NCBI GenBank assembly: GCA_016192685.1
Contig: JACPTS010000001.1
Location: 33,412-97,411, forward strand
Direction: 5' to 3'
Origin: Candidatus Harrisonbacteria bacterium
Lineage (GTDB): Bacteria; Patescibacteriota; Minisyncoccia; UBA6257; 02-FULL-45-10c
Length of the DNA stretch: 64,000 bases
Shown: positions 6,344 to 63,667 of the stretch, in pieces
How the letters are laid out: every line of letters starts with the position of its first letter
Numbering within the stretch: the first letter of the stretch is position 1
The notes under the pieces: generated by a model
What the model was told of the DNA's origin: nothing
Seen by the model: only the letters and a program-made list of their open reading frames with translations
Databases searched by the model: none
Made by a program: the position numbers and the translations under genes

Positions 6344-7066
6344 TTAAAGAGTAACAAAATTATTGCTAAATTTCCAGTTTATTTTATACCAATTCAAGTG
6401 TTCATAGACGCTCGCCCAATATAAACCAAAAAAGAAGGCGAATAGCAGCTCTTCCAGCGGTATTCCAAAAATTAGTTTCCCCGAAATATTAGAAAAATTC
6501 CAAACCGCTTCAACATATCCCGGATACAATAGAATTAAAATCTGAAAATAAATAAAATAGATGCCGAGAAAAATCAAGCCGCTGGCCGCCATCTTTCCTT
6601 TTAAATCCGGCCGGCAATACCAAGCCGCGAAAAAACCGAATATCAATGAAAAAATTGCGCTATAAATCGGATTCATTACATTAGCAAAAATCAAAAATAC
6701 AAAAAGAAATGGCGGTAAAACTACTGCCAGCCAATGAAACCGGTGTTGTTTTCCATTCATTTCTTCAACGCTCATTTTTTCATGCCGCAATGGGAAAATC
6801 AATTCGTAAATTGCGGTCGCAATTCCGCCGATGGCAAAAGAAAAAATAAAGCTCTCCAAATCAAATCCGGTTCTTTGCGCCAAATCAAACAAGGTCGGCG
6901 GATTCCAATATTCCGGAACAAAAAGCGGTTCGGTTAAACCAAGCAAAGAAGTCCAAAAACTCATTTTCAGCATTTCTGACCGGCTCTCTTTTTCTTTGGT
7001 CAAAAAATAAACGATTACCCAGACCGCTAAAAGAATTAAACTCCAAAAAAACCAAGCATAATGCAT
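6344..7066 (-). CDS. hypothetical polytopic membrane protein (240 aa)
   Basis: at least 6 hydrophobic helices. Confidence 0.4.
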   Translation of the reverse strand: MHYAWFFWSLILLAVWVIVYFLTKEKESRSEMLKMSFWTSLLGLTEPLFVPEYWNPPTLFDLAQRTGFDLESFIFSFAIGGIATAIYELIFPLRHEKMSVEEMNGKQHRFHWLAVVLPPFLFVFLIFANVMNPIYSAIFSLIFGFFAAWYCRPDLKGKMAASGLIFLGIYFIYFQILILLYPGYVEAVWNFSNISGKLIFGIPLEELLFAFFFGLYWASVYEHLNWYKINWKFSNNFVTL

Positions 7067-7081
7067 ATTTAATTTCTCAAA

Positions 7082-7858
7082 TCACTTTATTGCCTCTAAA
7101 AACAAAAACAAAGGAATTTCTTTGCGGACGCGATCCTCCGCTTTGGCGCGCGGTCCAGATTCGCTTTTTTTATGGGAACTCCATTCTTCCAGGCGGCTCA
7201 CACAAAACCCGGATTTTTCCAGCGCCTTGAAATAAAACTGAAGCGGCCGATGAAAAGAAATCGTGTATTCGCTCCGCCGACCGCGAATTTGAGCCGAAGG
7301 ATGCATTTCAATTTTTGACCGCGATTCGGAAAGATAGCTGTCAATCCTCCGATACTGGATTTTATTTTTGGCATCCCATTCCCAACCGGAATATTTGGGG
7401 ACCCGAAAAGCCGGGTGGTTTAACACTAAAAATAATTTTCCTTCCGGCTTTAAAACCCGGGCGCATTCCTCAAAAACCCCATTAGCATTCTCTATATTTT
7501 GAATTGTCAGAATTAACACCGCCTTATCCAAGCTTTGGTTTTTTAACATTTTTAAATCATCCGCCGAAGCGGCAAAATAAAGAACCTGGCCCGGCGGATA
7601 GCCGCGGGTATGGCTTTTGGCAGCTTCAACCAGCTCTTTAGAAATATCCACGCCGATTACCTTAGCTCCTTTTTTCAAAAATTCGGCGGCAAAAAATCCC
7701 GGCCCGCAGCCCAAATCCAAAATCACCTCGCCTTTTTTAATGTTTAACAGCCGGAGCAAATTCGGTAAAATCACTTCTTTTTGATAAGTCCTTTCTCCGC
7801 TTAATAAATTTTGGTACCATCCGGCCACTCCTCCCCAGGAGGTTTTTAACTTTTTCAT
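7082..7858 (-). CDS. class I SAM-dependent methyltransferase
   Basis: motif I VILDLGCGPGFFA; motif II-like LKPEGKLFL. Confidence 0.8.
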   Translation of the reverse strand: MKKLKTSWGGVAGWYQNLLSGERTYQKEVILPNLLRLLNIKKGEVILDLGCGPGFFAAEFLKKGAKVIGVDISKELVEAAKSHTRGYPPGQVLYFAASADDLKMLKNQSLDKAVLILTIQNIENANGVFEECARVLKPEGKLFLVLNHPAFRVPKYSGWEWDAKNKIQYRRIDSYLSESRSKIEMHPSAQIRGRRSEYTISFHRPLQFYFKALEKSGFCVSRLEEWSSHKKSESGPRAKAEDRVRKEIPLFLFLEAIK

Positions 7859-19337: not shown

Positions 19338-19369
19338 TAAAACAACTATACCCCTAATTCGTACGAATT
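19338..19369. promoter_or_regulatory. 32-bp perfect palindrome tatacccctaattcgtacgaattaggggtata (paralogue of 39485..39522)
   Basis: perfect dyad symmetry; lies between a terminator and the upstream region of gene 19038..19265. Confidence 0.4.
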
Positions 19370-19388
19370 AGGGGTATAAGGAAAAGAA

Positions 19389-20007: not shown

Positions 20008-20221
20008 TCGTACGGCAACTACGGAGCTTCATCACTCCCAACCAACAACAATATAAAGAAAAACTCGGATAAAAAAGAAGTCGGCATGCTTCATAGAGCA
20101 ACTACGGAGGCGCTAAAAGCTTGTTCTTTTGCGAAGCAAAAGTTTTAGCGCCGAGGCGTAGATGCGCTCCGCAGCTAGAGCGGAGCGACATCGGTGCTCA
20201 TAGAAGTATGCTGACTTCTTA
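20008..20221 (+). repeat. structured intergenic repeat family 1, copy 1 (complete unit about 20079..20221 plus partial upstream duplication)
   Basis: shares gcaactacggag...tttcgcgaagcaaaag...cgaggcgtag core with 37804..37952 and 63517..63667; copy-specific terminal inverted repeat aagaagtc(g/a)gcat(g/a)cttcatagagc. Confidence 0.6.
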
Positions 20222-25618: not shown

Positions 25619-27445
25619 TTAACGGGACCAGTTAATAATTACGTCATCAACCCGCGGCAAACTCGCGCCAGCCGCGTCAAAAAACGCCTTATACCTGAAA
25701 TAACGCTTGTTATTATGGTCAGCCGAACGGACTTTCGCCTGAACATTCGGGCCAGCCGGCGCGTAATAACCTGCGCCAGAGCCATCGGAACCCAAATAAT
25801 TCCACGGGCCGGAACTGCTGTTGGAAGAAGCAATCTGGAATTTCACCGCCGTTCCGGACGGCTGGTTGCCCTGCCACATAATGCTATTTAAAGCCGCGCC
25901 GCCGGAAACGCCGGTATCAAACACGCTGGAAATCAAAATACAATTGCTATCGCAACTGGCCGGGATATATTCCAACCCCTGAGGATGCTTAAACTGCCCG
26001 TTACCGGTGCCGTTAGTCCCCCACTTGGTAACAAAAATCCCGAAACCGTCAAATTTCTGGACACGGTCATTATCGCCGTCGGAAACATAAATATTATTTG
26101 CCTGATCGGCAGTCACGCTTTGCGGTTTATTAAACTGCCCGTTACCGGTGCCGTTGGTTCCCCATTTCAGAAGAAAATTACCATTGGAGTCAAATTTCTG
26201 GATTCTGTCATTCCCAAGATCGGCAACAAAAATATTGTTTAAATTATCAACGCCAACGCCTTGCGGGAATTTAAACTGCCCGTTCCCGGTGCCGTTAGTT
26301 CCCCACTTCAAAAGAAAATTCCCGCTGGAGTCAAATTTCTGGACGCGGTCATTATCACGGTCAGCGACATAAACATTATTGGCGCTATCCACTGCCACAT
26401 CCTGCGGCTTTTTGAATTTTCCGTCACTGGAACCGTTAGAACCCCACTCCAGAAGAAAATTGCCGCTGGAATTGAATTTTTGAATCCGGTCATTATCTAA
26501 ATCAGCGATATAAATATTATTAGCGCTGTCTATCGCAATCCCCTGGGGATGCCCAAATTCTCCGGGGTCATTTCCGCTGGTACCCCACTTCAAAAGAAAA
26601 TTCCCGCTGGAGTCAAATTTCTGGACGCGGTCATTGTCTTTATCCGTAACATAAACATTATTCAGGCTGTCAATCGCCACTCCATACGGTTTTTTAAACT
26701 GCCCGTTACCGGTGCCGTTAGTCCCCCACTTGGTAACAAAAATCCCGAAACCGTCAAATTTCTGGACACGGTCATTATCGCGGTCAGCGACATAAATATT
26801 GACTAAATTATTAGTAACCGGCGTAATAGAGCCGGACGTGGTGGTAAAATCAACATTGGTCTGGGAAGTAAATTTATTATTTACTGAAGTTATCGGGCCT
26901 TCCTGTCCGGCGCCGCCGGACCAATCGGTCTGGCGGAAAACTTCATTTGGCCAGCGAGTTAAATAAACTTCTGACGTAACAATTGGCGAAGAACCGCTGA
27001 TTGACCAACTCGCCGCTCCGGTAATTTTTTGGGTGGAAGGGTCATCATTTAAAGCATTATAAACCGATTCAATATTGCCGCTGGCATTCCGGGAAACATT
27101 TTCAATATAAAAATAAACCGTATAAACATTGTTATTGACGTTCGTCTGCTGGTCACCGCTCTCAATCGCCAGCTGACCGGTAGAAGTGGCGACATAATAA
27201 TGATTAGCTGAACCTTTATTCAAGCCATAAAGATTTTGCCAATTCTTTCCTCCTAAAGCAGCGACATTATCAGCCATGGAATTAATCAAAGACGAAGCAA
27301 TTTCATATTGCTGGGACAGCTGGCTGGAACGGAGCACTAAAAATAAAGCTCCGGAAGCAACTCCAAGCATGGTTACGCCAACGCCTAAAGCAACGACTAG
27401 CTCAATTAAAGATTGGCCGCGAACCGAATTTCTGTCCCAAGACAT
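25619..27445 (-). CDS. pilin-like (type IV prepilin N-terminus) protein with six-bladed NHL-repeat beta-propeller
   Basis: N-terminal GQSLIELVVALGVGV prepilin-type helix; six ~47-aa NHL repeats (DRDNDRVQKFD..G.F...WGT.GTGNGQF..P.GV.VD..NN.YV.D). Confidence 0.6.
   Translation of the reverse strand: MSWDRNSVRGQSLIELVVALGVGVTMLGVASGALFLVLRSSQLSQQYEIASSLINSMADNVAALGGKNWQNLYGLNKGSANHYYVATSTGQLAIESGDQQTNVNNNVYTVYFYIENVSRNASGNIESVYNALNDDPSTQKITGAASWSISGSSPIVTSEVYLTRWPNEVFRQTDWSGGAGQEGPITSVNNKFTSQTNVDFTTTSGSITPVTNNLVNIYVADRDNDRVQKFDGFGIFVTKWGTNGTGNGQFKKPYGVAIDSLNNVYVTDKDNDRVQKFDSSGNFLLKWGTSGNDPGEFGHPQGIAIDSANNIYIADLDNDRIQKFNSSGNFLLEWGSNGSSDGKFKKPQDVAVDSANNVYVADRDNDRVQKFDSSGNFLLKWGTNGTGNGQFKFPQGVGVDNLNNIFVADLGNDRIQKFDSNGNFLLKWGTNGTGNGQFNKPQSVTADQANNIYVSDGDNDRVQKFDGFGIFVTKWGTNGTGNGQFKHPQGLEYIPASCDSNCILISSVFDTGVSGGAALNSIMWQGNQPSGTAVKFQIASSNSSSGPWNYLGSDGSGAGYYAPAGPNVQAKVRSADHNNKRYFRYKAFFDAAGASLPRVDDVIINWSR
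25960..26815. repeat. six near-identical ~141-bp tandem coding repeats (NHL units)
   Basis: first and last units nearly identical at DNA level; explains spurious plus-strand ORFs 25985..26806. Confidence 0.8.
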
Positions 27446-35255: not shown

Positions 35256-35348
35256 GTTTTTTAAATTATATAACAGAAAAGATTTTCAGACAATTAAAAA
35301 ATCCCGAATGGTCGGGATAATGATTATTAAATATTTTTCTCATTCTAA

Positions 35349-35522
35349 AATTTTTCCATTGCGTTTCTAAAGTCGTCCCCCACTTTTTTCCAGTCGGAAG
35401 CAAGGCGCTCTTCATCAGTTCCAAACTGTTCCTCATAAGTCTTATAGCTTGGAAAAAGGTTAAATATATTTCCCATTCCCTTAAGAAATGCCTGCCAATT
35501 AATTTTCATCTCCATTTCTTAT
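35349..35522 (-). CDS. possible 57-aa small protein (MEMKINWQAFLKGMGNIF...)
   Basis: found by eye; below the track length cut-off. Confidence 0.2.
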
Positions 35523-35591
35523 AGCCATTAAAATACTACTTATACATTAATATAAAATATCAAAATCTTCAACTATTCAATTTTTGAGCTA

Positions 35592-35619
35592 TTGACAAAC
35601 TTTAATTGATTGGTATAAT
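35592..35619 (+). promoter_or_regulatory. consensus sigma70-type promoter (TTGACA-16 nt-TATAAT)
   Basis: exact hexamers at 35592..35597 and 35614..35619. Confidence 0.55.
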
Positions 35620-35625
35620 GTAATT

Positions 35626-35713
35626 AATGCGGTTGGGCAACGCAGGGTGTTACCCCCATCTATCCCTGAATTATTCTAGAGTAATTCAGGATCATAGATG
35701 GGGGTCTTTTTTT
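35626..35713 (+). ncRNA. candidate ~85-nt small RNA ending in an intrinsic terminator (nested palindrome cccccatctat...atagatggggg + T8)
   Basis: promoter immediately upstream; strong hairpin 35653..35704 followed by tcttttttt; no ORF. Confidence 0.35.
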
Positions 35714-35754
35714 ATTTCAAAATCCAACTCCCGCTCCACCAAAATAAAAATAAA

Positions 35755-35950
35755 CTGATATATTTCGTAGAAAAAATAAGCGAAGATTGTTTCTTGTGCG
35801 GAAACTGTCGCAGGCAAATCGGCTTGGTGTCCCGCGAAGCGGGACCGATTTGCCGAGACAGTAGCGGTGCTTGCGAGCCGCCGGAGCGAGCGGACAACCC
35901 GGTTCCGCAAAGAAATAATCTGAGCAATTTCGTAGAAATATATCAGTTCA
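35755..35950 (-). terminator. large compound hairpin followed by U-rich tract on the minus strand: probable 16S rRNA transcription terminator/processing structure
   Basis: inverted repeats 35755..35773 / 35928..35946, inner GC-rich palindromes (caaatcgg...ccgatttg, gtcccgcgaagcgggac); on minus strand followed by TTTATTTTTATTTT. Confidence 0.4.
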
Positions 35951-36265
35951 TTTTTAAAGAAAACTTTCTAGTTATCCCAACCTTATGCGGCCCGAATTTA
36001 ATCGGACAAGCAAATCGAGACTTGAGGCTCCTCGATCAAAACCTTTGCCTGCATTTTTCAATGCAGTATCGTACTCCATCAAATATAAATATTTGATTTT
36101 TGTTTAATTGATCCACGCACAGCTTCCGCTACGCGTGCCTTGTTACGACTTCTTCCATGTCACCGAATCTACCTTTATCCCGCCGAAGCGGAATTTCAGA
36201 TATCCCCGGCTCCCCTGAAGTGACGGGCGGTGAGTACAGGACTCGAGAACGTATTCACCGCGGCG

Positions 36266-36304
<39 letters not shown>

Positions 36305-36701
36305 GCGAGTTTCAGCCTCCAATCTGAACTGGGGCCATTTTTGATGGGATTAGCTCCGCCTTGCGGCTTGGCAACCCATTGTAATGGCCATTGTAGCACG
36401 AGTGTAGCCCAGGGCATCAGAGGGCCATGCGGATTTGACGTCATCCTCTCCTTCCTCCCCCAAAAAGAGGGCAGTCCCCGATGACACATATAACATCAGG
36501 TAAGGGTTGCGCTCGTTACCCCACTTAAGGGAACGTTTCAAAATACGAGCTGACGACAACCATGCAGCACCTGTCCAGCCGTTCCTTGAGAGAACATCCC
36601 ACGTTTCTGCGGGATTTCGTCTGGATTTCAAGCCCTGGTAAGGTTTCTCGCTTACTGTCGAATTGAACCTCATGCTCCACCGCTTGTGCGAGTCCCCGTC
36701 T

Positions 36702-36733
<32 letters not shown>

Positions 36734-37195
36734 TCCCAGGCGGCCTACTTAACGCGTTAGCTTCGCCACCCCGAGGGTCGATACTCGAGATAGCCAGTAG
36801 GCATCGTTTAGGGCGTGGACTACAAGGGTATCTACAATTTTGTTGCTTCGCAAAACTTTTATACTCGCTATGCTATTCTCGCTCATACTGCTGCGCGCTG
36901 GACAAAACTAATTCGCTCATAGCGGAAATTTATCACCCTAGTCGCATTCGCTCCTGGGTATCCCGATAAATTTCCTATTCGCTCAAAGTTTTGTAACCAT
37001 CGCTCCGCAACATTCGCTCAAACAGCATAACTCGTTTAATAATAGTTTTGCGTGACACAGACATTTCTGCTGTGTTCTCTGTGTTGCCATAGAGTTCGGA
37101 CTATATCATTCTCGCGCTTTGAAAAACGAATATCAATCATCTTGATACTCGTAGATCAAAGAGCGAGAATCGGCGTATAGTCTCTGAGGGGTTAA

Positions 37196-37450
37196 TTATT
37201 TTCCTTTTAATTTTTTGAGGTGTTTTTTCACGGTACGATCAACTAATTTAAACTCCGGTTCTTCCAAAATATCATGCGTTGTATATCCATATCTCTTACG
37301 GTCATTGGTTTTCCAAATTGCTTCAATAGACGGCAATCCTCTGCTTTTCAGTTCTTCATTCACGGTTTCTAGAACAGCTTTTAATTTCTTATTTGATTTG
37401 CTTGTGCAAACGATTTCTACAAACCTAAATTTTGAGTCAGGCCTTGACAT
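37196..37450 (-). CDS. intron-encoded small basic protein (84 aa from MSRPDSK), function unknown (no LAGLIDADG/GIY-YIG motif seen)
   Basis: preceded by a perfect Shine-Dalgarno AAGGAGGTG 7 nt upstream of ATG; embedded in the rRNA insertion. Confidence 0.35.
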   Translation of the reverse strand: MSRPDSKFRFVEIVCTSKSNKKLKAVLETVNEELKSRGLPSIEAIWKTNDRKRYGYTTHDILEEPEFKLVDRTVKKHLKKLKGK

Positions 37451-37803
37451 CGTCCACCTCCTTTTTAAATTAACTTCCCTGCTGGTTGTCCGCACCGACG
37501 CGTTTTCACCAGCGATTTGTTTTTGAAATTTCAAAAACAAATCGCTGGTAGCGTCGGATACGCCGGATTTTCCAGCATATAGCCGATTTTACATTCCAGT
37601 GTTGCCACTGAAAGGGACCATATGCGTCTCCGGAAAATTCCGGAGTCACTTCTTTATACCCTAAAGAGAGTGAGATTATTTTTGCGAACCAATAAAATTA
37701 TATTTGCTTCACTTATTTATCTATTTATCGTGCGGCAACATTTATTTTAATTTCTTGCCGAACTGCCGAGTTATCATAGAGAAACTTTATACAATCTAAA
37801 CGA

Positions 37804-37952
37804 GCTCTGCCTGTGTTTCGTGCGGCAACTACGGAGCTCCGAAATGCTTGGCTTTCGCGAAGCGAAAATTTCGGAGCGAGGCGTAGACGCGTTTCGCCGC
37901 AGGAGCGAAACGACGCCGGTGCCGTCAGAAATACAGGCGGAGCGAGTAAAAC
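37804..37952 (+). repeat. structured repeat family 1, copy 2 (inside the rRNA insertion)
   Basis: core identical to copies at 20079..20221 and 63517..63667; own terminal inverted repeat c(t/c)gcctgt(g/a)tttc. Confidence 0.6.
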
Positions 37953-38170
37953 TCATAGACAATTCGGCGGAGCGGCATTTTCAAAATGAATGCCGATGCC
38001 GGTAGACAAATAAGTGAAGCAAATGAGTTCGTAAAAATAACCGAACGATCCTTTTTGCTCCCCACGCTTTCGTGCAATGAGAGTCAGTAATGCGCCAGCC
38101 AAATGCTTTCGCCTTTGGTATTCCCCACGATATCAACGGATTTCACCCCTACACCGTGAGTTCTATTGGC

Positions 38171-38459
38171 CTCTCGCACACTCTAGACAAGTCCCCTCTG
38201 TACAAATGTTTCCACTAAATTGAAATCATTGATTTTGTATCAAGTTCAAGGCGCGAGGAGGAAATCGTAGGGTTACCTACCTTTCCGACTCGCAACGCAG
38301 AAATTGATCAAAATCAAGATTCCCGAAGGGTAAGGAAATTTTTGTCAGCTTCTTCGTTAGTCGTCGCTAGTGTATCTAAAGATACACTTCGCTCCTCCTG
38401 CCTTGAATTTAACTCAAAATTTCCTTATCAATTAGTGAAAATATTTGTACAGAGGGGAC
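38171..38459 (-). other. ~290-nt intervening sequence (IVS) in 16S helix region ~E. coli 650, bounded by a perfect 33-bp inverted repeat
   Basis: gtcccctctgtacaaatgtttccactaaattga ... tcaattagtgaaaatatttgtacagaggggac; flanks align to 16S; core homologous to 61408..61678. Confidence 0.7.
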
Positions 38460-38989
38460 AGCAGTTTTTGCTGCAGCCTCGAAGTTGAGCCCCGAGATTT
38501 AACAGCAAACTTGCTGGTCCTCCTACGCACTCTTTACGCCCAATAAATCCGGATAACGCTTGGAGCCCTCGTATTACCGCGGCTGCTGGCACGAGGTTAG
38601 CAGCTCCTTATTCCTCTGGTACTATCAGCCTTGCGGCTTTCTCCCAGAGAAAAGCAGTTTACAATCCTTAGACCTTCATCCTGCACGCGGCGTCGCTCGA
38701 TCAGGCTTTCGCCCATTGTCGAATATTCTCGACTGCTGCCACCCGTAGGTGTACGAGCCGTGTCTCAGTCTCGTCGTTGGGGAACACCCTCTCAGGCCCC
38801 CTACTGGTCATAGCCTTGGTAGGCCATTACCCTACCAACTAGCTGATCAGACCTAGGCCGCTCCCAAAGCCCCTTGCGGGTTTTAATCCGAATGTTGCAT
38901 CGGATGCTATCGGGCATTACCCCGCCTTTCGGCGAGCTGTGCCCGTCTTTAGGGTACGTACCAAGGTGTTACTAACTCGTTCGCCGCTC

Positions 38990-39075
38990 GCCTTCGGCTC
39001 GGACAAATAACTTTTAACAAATAACTAATAACGAAATTGTTAATAGTTATAAGTTATTTAGTTATTAGTCCGAGC
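38990..39075 (-). other. expanded V1 helix of 16S (~60-nt AT-rich palindromic extension)
   Basis: ggactaataactaaataacttataactattaacaatttcgttattagttatttgttaaaagttatttgtccgag between conserved GCAAGTCG and GGCGAACG. Confidence 0.5.
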
Positions 39076-39448
39076 TAAAAGCTCGCACGACTTGCATGCC
39101 TTATCCACGCCGCCAGCGTTCATCCTGGACCAGGATCAAATCCTCTAAATAAAAGTCAGTTGCACAGAACCCTCGAACGAGTTCCTAGCAACTAACCTTC
39201 GTATTGGGACAACTAGAAAATTTTCTTTTTTACTTGTAATTTTACTAAATTACTAAATTTTATATATTTAGTTATCAAGCCAGCATGTATTATCTTTAAT
39301 TAGTAAAAATAATACACCTATCTTGCGGTTCGTGGTTTTCACCGAGTCAAACTCGGCTTCACACCAGCGGCAAGATAGATGCATTTAGAACCTATCTAGT
39401 AATCTATGAAATTTTTAAATAAAAACTTATTTCATTAAGGTAGTTCTA

Positions 39449-39484: not shown

Positions 39485-39522
39485 CCCCATACCCCTTATT
39501 CGTACGAATAAGGGGTATGGGG
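39485..39522. promoter_or_regulatory. 38-bp perfect palindrome ccccataccccttattcgtacgaataaggggtatgggg just upstream of the rRNA promoter
   Basis: perfect dyad; paralogue with compensatory changes at 19338..19369. Confidence 0.4.
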
Positions 39523-39853: not shown

Positions 39854-39987
39854 ATGAAGCTCCACGGCCTTACGGCCGTGGTTTCTCAGCGGAATTCTCC
39901 GAAGCCAACCCTCCTTCGCATAAAGCTTCGGAGGGTTCTCCTCGCCTTCATCCAACGGCCTTACGGCCGTGGTTTTCGGCGAAGGAG
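39854..39987 (+). repeat. structured repeat family 2, copy B
   Basis: see 1036..1172. Confidence 0.6.
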
Positions 39988-40315
39988 AATAAAAAATAAA
40001 AACCTGACCGAAGTCAGGGCAAGCAAATCTCGCGAATTTCTAAAAGTTTCGGATTTTCAATTGTCTTGTCATCCGCGTTATTTTTCTTCCATTGCTCAAA
40101 TTCTTGTTTAGCTTCTGCTAAACTTTGCGCCGATAAACGCTGTTCTTCCCCAAATACCACTCCTCCTCCGCCCGAAAGCAATTTTAATCTGCCAAAATGA
40201 ACCCGGTAAGAAAGAATCATGGCGCTTATCCGCGGTTTACAAACATCACTATCAAAATAGTAATCCGGCTAATCCAACTTGTCAAACAAAAAAATATCCT
40301 ATATAATATCTAAAT

Positions 40316-42824: not shown

Positions 42825-42905
42825 TCTCTGCCTACCGGCATCGGAGTCCGCTTGCCGCTGGAGCGAGCGAACCGCGGTTCTCATAGAAATATACTGGCTG
42901 GTTTT
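42825..42905. repeat. partial copy of repeat family 1 (3' stem module ggagtccgcttgccgctggagcgagcg)
   Basis: matches the 63600..63650 module. Confidence 0.45.
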
Positions 42906-61407: not shown

Positions 61408-61678
61408 GGAATCTATTTTAATAATAATTCCCTAACGCGATACTAGCCAATTTTGGCTAGGACAAGGCGCAAGGAGGAAATCGCAGCTTAAGCTGCCTTT
61501 CCGACGAGCAACGCAGTCATAGACAAAATTGGCTGTATCCCTTTGGGTTGTCGCTAAAATGAATTATCTCTGTGTCGTTCCTCCTCGAGGTAGCTATGGC
61601 TACGATCTCGTCGTCACTCCTTGAGCTAATTCATTTTAGCTGACAACGCGTTGGTGAATTTTTATTAAAATAGATTCC
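61408..61678. repeat. ~270-bp TIR-bounded structured element, paralogue of the 16S IVS (38171..38459)
   Basis: terminal inverted repeats ggaatctattttaataa / ttattaaaatagattcc; core caaggcgcaaggaggaaatcgcag...cctttccgacgagcaacgcag matches the IVS core with compensatory hairpin changes. Confidence 0.6.
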
Positions 61679-63499: not shown

Positions 63500-63516
63500 A
63501 AATAAATTTTAACATA

Positions 63517-63667
63517 AAAGCGGGTAACTATCTTTCGTACGGCAACTACGGAGCTCCGAAAAGATTGGTTTTTCGCGAAGCGAAAATTTTCGGAGCGAGG
63601 CGTAGGAGCCGCTTGCCGCTGGAGCAAGCGGACTCCGGTGCCGATAGGAAGATGGTTACCCGCTTTT
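63517..63667 (+). repeat. structured repeat family 1, copy 3 (complete, with ~21-bp terminal inverted repeats aaagcgggtaac(t/c)atctt)
   Basis: cgtacggcaactacggagctccgaaaag...tttcgcgaagcgaaaattttcggagcgaggcgtag... Confidence 0.65.

Follow-up and report, generated by a model that had tools for sequence, protein, structure and literature searches.

Between the 3′ end of a 16S rRNA gene and a type IV pilus operon in a Candidatus Harrisonbacteria genome lies a short plus-strand unit (35592-35713) made of a promoter and an intrinsic terminator, which we analysed together with its predicted RNA and its counterparts in related bacteria. The window is the whole stretch of 64,000 nucleotides of contig JACPTS010000001.1 that was studied, and all positions are counted from its first letter. 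Read along the minus strand, the order is 16S gene, 16S trailer, a GC-rich repeat, the hairpin and promoter of the unit (on the opposite strand), a 56-aa open reading frame (ORF), a single-domain response regulator (RR), pilin, PilB, and PilC; transcription of the unit would thus converge with that of the 16S gene and diverge from that of the pilus operon. There is no plus-strand gene on the upstream side of the unit, nor one between it and the 16S gene. The strain occurs in groundwater communities (metagenomes SRR4343428, SRR4343430, and SRR12113385-418). Homologues of the 56-aa ORF amounted to a single distant relative (60%), on a 500-nt contig with unrelated context, and are uninformative. 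Coordinates of the features are collected in Table 1.

The promoter matches the sigma-70 consensus at 12/12 hexamer positions, has a spacing that falls within the usual 16-18 nt, and additionally carries a TG at -15/-14. The original prediction, made from the sequence of the window, had placed TTGACA, a 16-nt spacer, and TATAAT on the plus strand and called the combination rare by chance in 64 kb; the coordinates and strand are all borne out, with the extended -10 element besides, and so is the rarity, since the window contains two perfect TTGACA-N15-18-TATAAT sites as compared to 0.07 expected from shuffled sequences. The second of these is the promoter of the 16S gene (39476-39449, minus strand), ∼300 nt upstream of that gene. 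Because the sole other perfect site drives 16S, perfect consensus promoters would seem to mark very strongly transcribed units in this genome.

Transcription from this promoter would run into a two-tier hairpin. Folding of 35626-35713 by RNAfold gives -37.5 kcal/mol (z = -4.6), and 0/200 shuffled sequences fold equally well. The stem-loop is stable and contains GC pairs, and a U7 tract starts 2 nt beyond the stem, as in intrinsic terminators generally. Of the terminator first described, the strong hairpin and the T run stand, although the run is T7 preceded by TC rather than T8; the palindrome cannot be called perfect as it had been, for the inner stem includes one U·G pair (T/G in the DNA) and the junction between the tiers is asymmetric (1 vs 3 nt). 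A simple terminator scan did not list this hairpin, presumably because of its interior loop. The predicted transcript is 85-88 nt long and consists of a 26-nt 5′ tail and a remainder that is mostly double-stranded; delimited by a promoter and a terminator of its own, it falls in the 50-300-nt size class of small RNA (sRNA) genes.

Table 1. Features at and around the promoter–terminator unit (coordinates in the 64,000-nt window)
Feature	Coordinates	Strand	Basis or remark
Divergent 56-aa ORF, lineage-specific	35345..35515	-	At the site where relatives have a trpR-like gene
Conserved promoter block AATTTTTGAGCTATTGACAAA, containing the -35 hexamer	35579..35599	+	Comparison with relatives
-35 hexamer TTGACA	35592..35597	+	Direct sequence reading
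Extended -10 element TGgTATAAT	35611..35619	+	TATAAT 35614-35619, TG 35611-35612; 16-nt spacer after -35
Predicted transcription start (A)	35626..35627	+	Presumed from position, 7-8 nt after -10
Frame of 43 codons	35627..35758	+	ATG at 35627, stop at 35756-35758; runs through hairpin and T run
5′ segment of predicted RNA	35627..35651	+	RNAfold; weak 4-bp hairpin 35628-35631 / 35641-35644
Two-tier terminator hairpin, loop CUAG	35652..35705	+	RNAfold; 12-bp outer stem 35652-35663 / 35694-35705, 11-bp inner stem 35665-35675 / 35680-35690
T7 tract and conserved tail ATTTCAAAATCCAA	35707..35727	+	T7 at 35707-35713; motif common to relatives
GC-rich structured repeat with 29-nt terminal inverted repeats	35745..35956	+	Window repeat search; just downstream of the terminator
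Conserved 16S 3′ trailer	35960..36100	-	Sequence comparison with relatives
16S gene, ∼3.05 kb	36101-39151	-	Rfam

To place the unit in context we gathered relatives by a PilB-based scan of GTDB species genomes, by a scan of JGI metagenomes with a conserved 26-mer of the 16S trailer, and by look-ups of homologues of the RR and of a 277-aa protein described below; the loci fetched are denoted here by L numbers. The succession of 16S gene, RR, and pilus operon recurs in L007/L014, L015/L022, L029, L031, and the less closely related L009/L010; in L029 the 16S gene is moreover preceded, just as it is in the window, by RF, L31, and a small ORF. The interval from the RR to the 16S trailer is different in every lineage. 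In eight related lineages, the slot that corresponds to 35620-35706 of the window is occupied by protein genes in five, and in three there is no unit at all.

The contents of this slot are diverse (percentages refer to the RR). L015/L022 (84%) have a trpR-like gene, a hairpin, the promoter CTCAAATTTTTGAGCTATTGACAAA...TATGAT, AAAGGAGG, an 82-aa ORF, a hairpin, and the T8 tract and tail ATTTAAAAATCCAA, while L007/L014 have a SemiSWEET-like gene, a trpR-like gene, the promoter TTGACT-17-TATAAT, a 150-nt leader, the 277-aa gene, a hairpin, and the T7 tract and tail ATTTCAAAATCCAA. The promoter AAATTTTTGAATTGTTGACA...TATAAT precedes a 35-aa hydrophobic peptide in L024 (81%). In L027/28 (78%), a 52-aa peptide with terminator and tail comes first, then a DUF5317 gene (cargo of 52 + 112 aa) behind a degenerate promoter block, and lastly a further terminator and tail, and in L029 (73%) the promoter TTGACG...TATTAT, an ORF of ∼70 aa, a terminator, and the tail are found. 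L031, the closest lineage by its RR gene (89%), has ∼170 nt of repeat debris without promoter, hairpin, or tail, and L009/L010 have ∼215 nt with one small hairpin.

The borders of the slot are shared between lineages. The promoter block AATTTTTGAGCTATTGACAAA is identical at 21/21 nt between the window and L015/L022 and has close variants in L024, L007, and L027; it stands before protein-coding cargo in L015/L022, L024, and L007, and in degenerate form before the DUF5317 gene of L027/28. At the other border, the tail motif T7-8 ATT[TC]AAAA(A)TC[CT]AA (T7-8 ATTYAAAAATCCAA) follows the last plus-strand gene in L015, L007, L027 (twice), and L029, so that the T tract and tail of the window occupy a position that marks the end of a transcription unit elsewhere. 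The hairpin before this shared tail is unrelated in each lineage, ranging from -10 to -44 kcal/mol. L031 and L009/L010 have no plus-strand promoter or cargo, nor a strong hairpin and tail, and because lineages without plus-strand cargo are also without a strong hairpin, the hairpin is assigned to the plus-strand unit rather than to 16S. Thus, the architecture first proposed, a lone promoter followed after ∼26 nt by a hairpin and U tract that would give a plus-strand RNA of ∼85 nt, is supported, with promoter and terminator orthologous to putative promoter and terminator positions in relatives. We conclude that 35592-35713 is a real mini transcription unit, which probably makes an 85-88-nt RNA. 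Directly upstream of the -35 element of the slot we also observed an inverted repeat, CTCAAA-TT-TTTGAG (L015 5626-5639, with equivalents in L007 and L027), in genomes with an adjacent trpR-like gene; it may be a putative operator of the TrpR-like regulator. At the same site in the window, which has no trpR-like gene, the repeat is degraded (TTCAATTTTTGAG, 35575-35588).

What lies between these borders is another matter. The 87-nt insert between the -10 element and the T tract (35620-35706) has no homologue in the rest of the window or, by BLAST of 172 kb of related loci, among the relatives, apart from one short match (GGTTGGGCAACG) discussed below, and it is absent from the fetched loci of all eight related lineages. 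Neither its 5′ segment nor its hairpin has a further copy in the window. No Rfam family was matched by the unit when the whole window was searched at gathering thresholds, and a search of 35300-36150 on both strands with E up to 10 gave nothing below E 0.9, the matches being to snoRNA, miRNA, and “toxic sRNA” models at 14-21 bits. Scans of IMG/VR with the inner palindrome, the outer arms, and the 5′ segment were without match in two cases; a 19-mer match in IMG/VR falls within a high-GC phage ORF and was judged to be due to chance, as was a 14-nt match to L011, where no hairpin is present at the matching site. The RNA has no above-chance complementarity to either strand of the window, the best stretches being 12-13 nt with a mismatch (E at least 4.8). 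The candidate sRNA originally proposed is therefore unsupported as a functional, conserved RNA: the insert was found in none of the eight related lineages, an outcome that the original prediction had named as refuting it, and the unit belongs to no described RNA family and lacks the conservation expected of a bona fide sRNA.

It had further been stated that no ORF follows the promoter, which is not literally true, since an ATG only 7 nt after the -10 element opens the 43-codon frame of Table 1. That spacing is the one expected for a leaderless start and is seen in 11/55 long ORFs of the window, and it is on this account that ribosomes may load on the transcript at this AUG. The predicted transcript contains no complete conserved ORF: the frame crosses the terminator and then the tail, which does not code for protein in relatives, its stop lies past the T tract, and its product has 0 homologues among 1.84 billion representative proteins, for which reasons we judge it to be non-coding or a pseudogene.

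We favor, with somewhat better than even confidence, the explanation that Harrisonbacteria have a hypervariable slot for accessory genes between the pilus operon and the 16S gene, that the unit consists of the promoter and intrinsic terminator of this slot, and that the slot is without cargo in this genome. The RNA of the unit is then most likely a side product of the loss or replacement of a gene, possibly the target gene of a diversity-generating retroelement (DGR), rather than a conserved regulator; the slot would have lost its gene rather than never having been filled, and nothing indicates a conserved function of the RNA, which we take to be probably functionless. In the mechanism that we envisage, RNA polymerase with the housekeeping sigma factor would bind the consensus -35 and extended -10 elements, start at about A35626/27, and transcribe ∼85-88 nt; the nascent RNA would then fold into the 23-bp two-tier hairpin, to be followed by U7, and the polymerase would release. 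Efficient termination would thereby spare the repeat element and the 16S gene antisense transcription from this strong promoter.

The suggestion of a DGR target comes from the short match mentioned above. The sequence GGTTGGGCAACG (35631-35642) is identical at 12/12 nt to the 3′ end of the variable region (VR) of the 277-aa gene of L007/L014, in the same frame, strand, and slot. The alignment reads ATG CGG TTG GGC AAC GCA GGG in the window and TTC AGG TTG GGC AAC GTT GGC in L007, or M-R-L-G-N-A-G versus F-R-L-G-N-V-G (RLGN(A/V)G), with CGG and AGG synonymous; the matched codons are the last hypervariable codons of the VR. The match lies ∼65 nt upstream of the shared T tract in the window vs ∼100 nt in L007. 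The 277-aa family itself, annotated as “hypothetical”, occurs widely among Parcubacteria and lacks any Pfam domain (homologues P0003-P0122; L007 1121-1954). In L017 (6001-8701), a 277-aa homologue is followed by a template repeat (TR), bAvd, and a reverse transcriptase (RT), and the VR (6558-6676) is 81.5% identical to the TR (7093-7211), with the differences at TR adenines; from this arrangement the family is identified as a DGR target. Its C-terminal pattern is RVxVGxFxxxGLxVxxxWDDxRxxxxGLAASRKF, and most homologues (e.g. L007, L019-21) are far from any RT. In the window, we found no RT or Avd by tblastn with the L017 proteins, no TR, and no repeats of 35627-35651, so that the segment lacks the cognate TR and the nearby RT or Avd that characterize a DGR VR; tblastn with the 277-aa protein and two other L007 cargo proteins likewise gave nothing significant in the window. 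That the insert is a deletion relic of a DGR-target gene may be regarded as a plausible, not an established, detail of the cargo-less slot.

Several points weigh against the cargo-less slot, or against its DGR origin. The relatives sampled comprise only eight lineages, and in six contigs with identical neighbour proteins the locus is 100% identical, which leaves no population or compensatory-change information. A perfect promoter and a nearly perfect hairpin are surprising in a decaying relic and could mean selection or a recent event. The 12-nt match has a BLAST E of 0.88 over the 172 kb of fetched loci, and the positional prior that lowers the chance to roughly p 0.005-0.02, by our own estimate, was applied post hoc. 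Moreover, the remaining insert, hairpin included, is unlike the 277-aa cassette, which carries its own conserved hairpin in L007, L017, and L018, and for this reason one simple deletion does not explain the insert.

The intactness of the consensus elements, which speaks against long neutral decay, is also the main argument for a different explanation, namely that the unit is a genuine, young, lineage-specific sRNA gene whose 26-nt 5′ tail pairs with targets in trans, or with pre-16S or pilus read-through transcripts in cis. The unit has its own strong promoter and terminator and the canonical size, and cargo is so freely exchanged in the slot that an RNA gene could be one more item of it. We nonetheless consider such a gene unlikely, as the RNA is conserved in 0/8 related lineages, has no Rfam family, is not complementary to either window strand beyond what chance would give, and has a 5′ tail that resembles coding-sequence debris. 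The original prediction had the RNA antisense to the 16S trailer. This is unsupported: the predicted end at ∼35713 is 32 nt before the repeat element, ∼250 nt short of the conserved trailer, and 388 nt from the 16S 3′ end (36101). The simple terminator scan found no minus-strand terminator between 36100 and 35713, and any overlap between the RNA and pre-16S transcripts would therefore depend on the extent of 16S read-through. The lack of a canonical minus-strand terminator between the 16S 3′ end and the hairpin is at the same time what might commend a role for the hairpin on the minus strand, in 16S 3′-end formation, processing, or as a roadblock, with interference from the convergent promoter shielding the pilus operon from rRNA read-through. 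The 16S gene and the pilus operon are adjacent and co-directional in all relatives, and a hairpin occurs at this spot in every relative with plus-strand cargo. Yet, the T tract is always on the plus side, the minus-strand flank of the hairpin being UAACACCC with no U's, and L031 and L009/10 keep the 16S-to-RR arrangement without a comparable strong hairpin; we regard a minus-strand role as improbable. A bidirectional terminator serving the 16S gene was rejected, as its minus-strand side would be without a U tract.

The 43-codon frame leads to another possibility, a leaderless mini-ORF that acts as a translation-coupled attenuator, in which translation through the hairpin would suppress termination and let transcription proceed past 35758, antisense to the 16S gene. 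The ATG has the spacing from the -10 element noted above, the frame spans the terminator, and leaderless initiation is probably common in this genome, where Shine-Dalgarno (SD) motifs are almost absent and the 16S rRNA has no anti-SD. Read-through antisense into the 16S gene would, were this attenuator real, couple ribosome availability to transcription of the rRNA or of the pilus operon. But the 43-aa product is without homologue, the frame crosses a tail that relatives keep as non-coding sequence, chance alone would place an ATG at 6-9 nt in ∼7% of cases (our own estimate), RNAfold gives no evident alternative antiterminator pairing, and the arrangement is not conserved, which together make the attenuator very improbable. 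A riboswitch or attenuator for a downstream gene was rejected, since the unit is followed by no plus-strand gene and shows no alternative antiterminator fold. Equally, we thought it improbable that a functional RNA was recently born here from DGR-target debris, whether as an sRNA acting in trans or in cis from one of the two strongest promoters of the region or as a leaderless-AUG attenuator. Lastly, the palindrome might be read as a DNA operator, that is, a protein-binding dyad (an alternative that had accompanied the original prediction) or a cruciform, such as a DGR target-recognition hairpin left with a VR remnant. Hairpin or cruciform elements follow the DGR variable regions of a Bordetella phage and of Legionella, and here the dyad is long and adjoins the 12-nt match to a DGR VR. 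Still, the T/G position in the inner arms pairs only as RNA, the tiers are out of register (1 vs 3 nt), the sequence is single-copy in the window, there is no RT, Avd, or TR in the 64 kb, and the T7 tract comes directly 3′ of the dyad, as in the orthologous terminators; the operator is accordingly disfavored, and we give it hardly any credence.

Other features of the 16S region were noted in passing. Rfam matches the gene on the minus strand in two pieces split by insertions (36101-36924 and 37940-39151), and also finds one tRNA in the window. The ∼1-kb insertion between the pieces (36925-37939) carries a 114-aa ORF (37196-37540) and a copy of the GC-rich repeat, and 28-nt inverted repeats enclose a second insertion of ∼274 nt (38190-38463), the interior of which recurs at 61463-61528; 16S insertions in relatives include a LAGLIDADG gene in L031 and a group II intron domain match in L029. 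The ∼140-170 nt past the 16S 3′ end are ∼87-90% conserved across Harrisonbacteria, matching the rRNA itself in this respect (L007 640-800, L015 6290-6430, L029, L031), and variation in the small hairpins of this trailer is confined to loops. The conserved trailer may form a stem used in processing, or it may be a 3′ extension that is retained. Upstream of the gene, a 38-nt perfect palindrome CCCCATACCCCTTATTCGTACGAATAAGGGGTATGGGG at 39485-39522 stands 8 nt before the -35 element of the 16S promoter and is not followed by a T tract, and a related palindrome ATACCCCTAATTCGTACGAATTAGGGGTAT is found at 19348-19377; the former is possibly a regulator binding site.

The 3′ end of the 16S gene (36101-36115, minus strand) reads GGAUCAAUUAAAC, with no CCUCC anti-SD, and the same holds for L007, L029, L031, and L009/L010. 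An SD-like core precedes only 1/36 ORFs of at least 200 aa in the window, and a -10-like hexamer lies 6-9 nt before the ATG in ∼11/55 long ORFs. This sequence evidence suggests that leaderless mRNAs may be widespread in this Harrisonbacteria genome. Oddly, the slot cargo genes of relatives have a perfect AAAGGAGG before the ATG.

The repeat just downstream of the terminator belongs to a dispersed family of GC-rich structured repeats of ∼130-150 nt in these AT-rich Harrisonbacteria genomes. Copies in the window are at 20085-20215, 35786-35914 (inside the long hairpin 35745-35956), 37811-37933, 42838-42895 (partial), and 63516-63667, and copies in relatives at L007 800-931 and 3748-3897, L015 6062-6284, L017 1252-1415 and 11599-11735, L027 97-243, and L029 5310-5456; one site is inside a 16S insertion, and others are just downstream of the 16S gene in several lineages. 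An RNAalifold consensus of 10 copies has 44 pairs, 38 of them kept by double (compensatory) changes, with conserved unpaired motifs GCAACTACGGAG, GCTTGG, CGAGGCGTAG, and GGAGC..GAC..CCGGTGC. No Rfam family matches this repeat, which could be a miniature inverted-repeat transposable element (MITE) whose hairpin is under selection, or else a structured RNA not yet described. Two further repeats were observed, one of ∼140 nt, inverted at 1030-1171 and 39854-39995 (38 kb apart, 79-91% identity; one copy just upstream of the 16S region), and a tandem array of five 141-nt units at 25989-26803 (65-76% identity) that is presumably a repeat-containing coding region. The GC-rich repeat family, the 16S rRNA without anti-SD, and the common leaderless genes are in our view more interesting than the promoter–terminator unit.

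As a candidate sRNA, the unit matters little, being unconserved and most likely a by-product of cargo loss. It illustrates, however, how a promoter and terminator can endure as the constant edges of a small slot whose genes turn over rapidly in the reduced genomes of the candidate phyla radiation (CPR), and how an emptied slot yields an sRNA-like unit, material from which an sRNA might be born. Should the RNA turn out to be abundant and functional, it would rank among the earliest sRNAs of a Patescibacteria genome whose origin can be traced. sRNAs are born from pseudogenes and other gene remnants, by promoter capture, and from transcriptional noise. The parts of the unit are ordinary, a sigma-70 promoter and an intrinsic terminator, and as a whole it resembles such decay-born, lineage-specific, sRNA-like units: it shares with them a lone sigma-70 promoter and terminator ∼85 nt apart, an interior of apparent coding debris, and lack of conservation in sister lineages, but differs in that its promoter and terminator are conserved as the borders of a cargo slot and in that its RNA is predicted from sequence. 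Compared to a canonical Rho-independent terminator or attenuator, it has the GC-clamped hairpin and U tract, orthologous to the gene-end terminators of relatives, but an unusually long two-tier stem of 23 bp, a 26-nt leader, no downstream gene, and no antiterminator. DGRs are reportedly abundant in CPR bacteria, and with the 3′ end of a DGR target such as the 277-aa family (in L017 with TR, bAvd, and RT) the unit shares 12 nt, touching six in-frame codons, and a hairpin after them, whereas TR, RT, Avd, the GxxASRKF end, the stop codon, and the terminator hairpin of the cassette are all missing and the match is short and only suggestive. The setting of the unit is comparable to that of the variable genomic islets found at hotspots, in that conserved flanks (the promoter block and T-tract tail) enclose cargo that differs in each of six lineages; the Harrisonbacteria slot departs from these by its very small size (0.09-2.5 kb), by the lack of any visible integrase, att sites, or mobility genes, and by being effectively empty in this genome.

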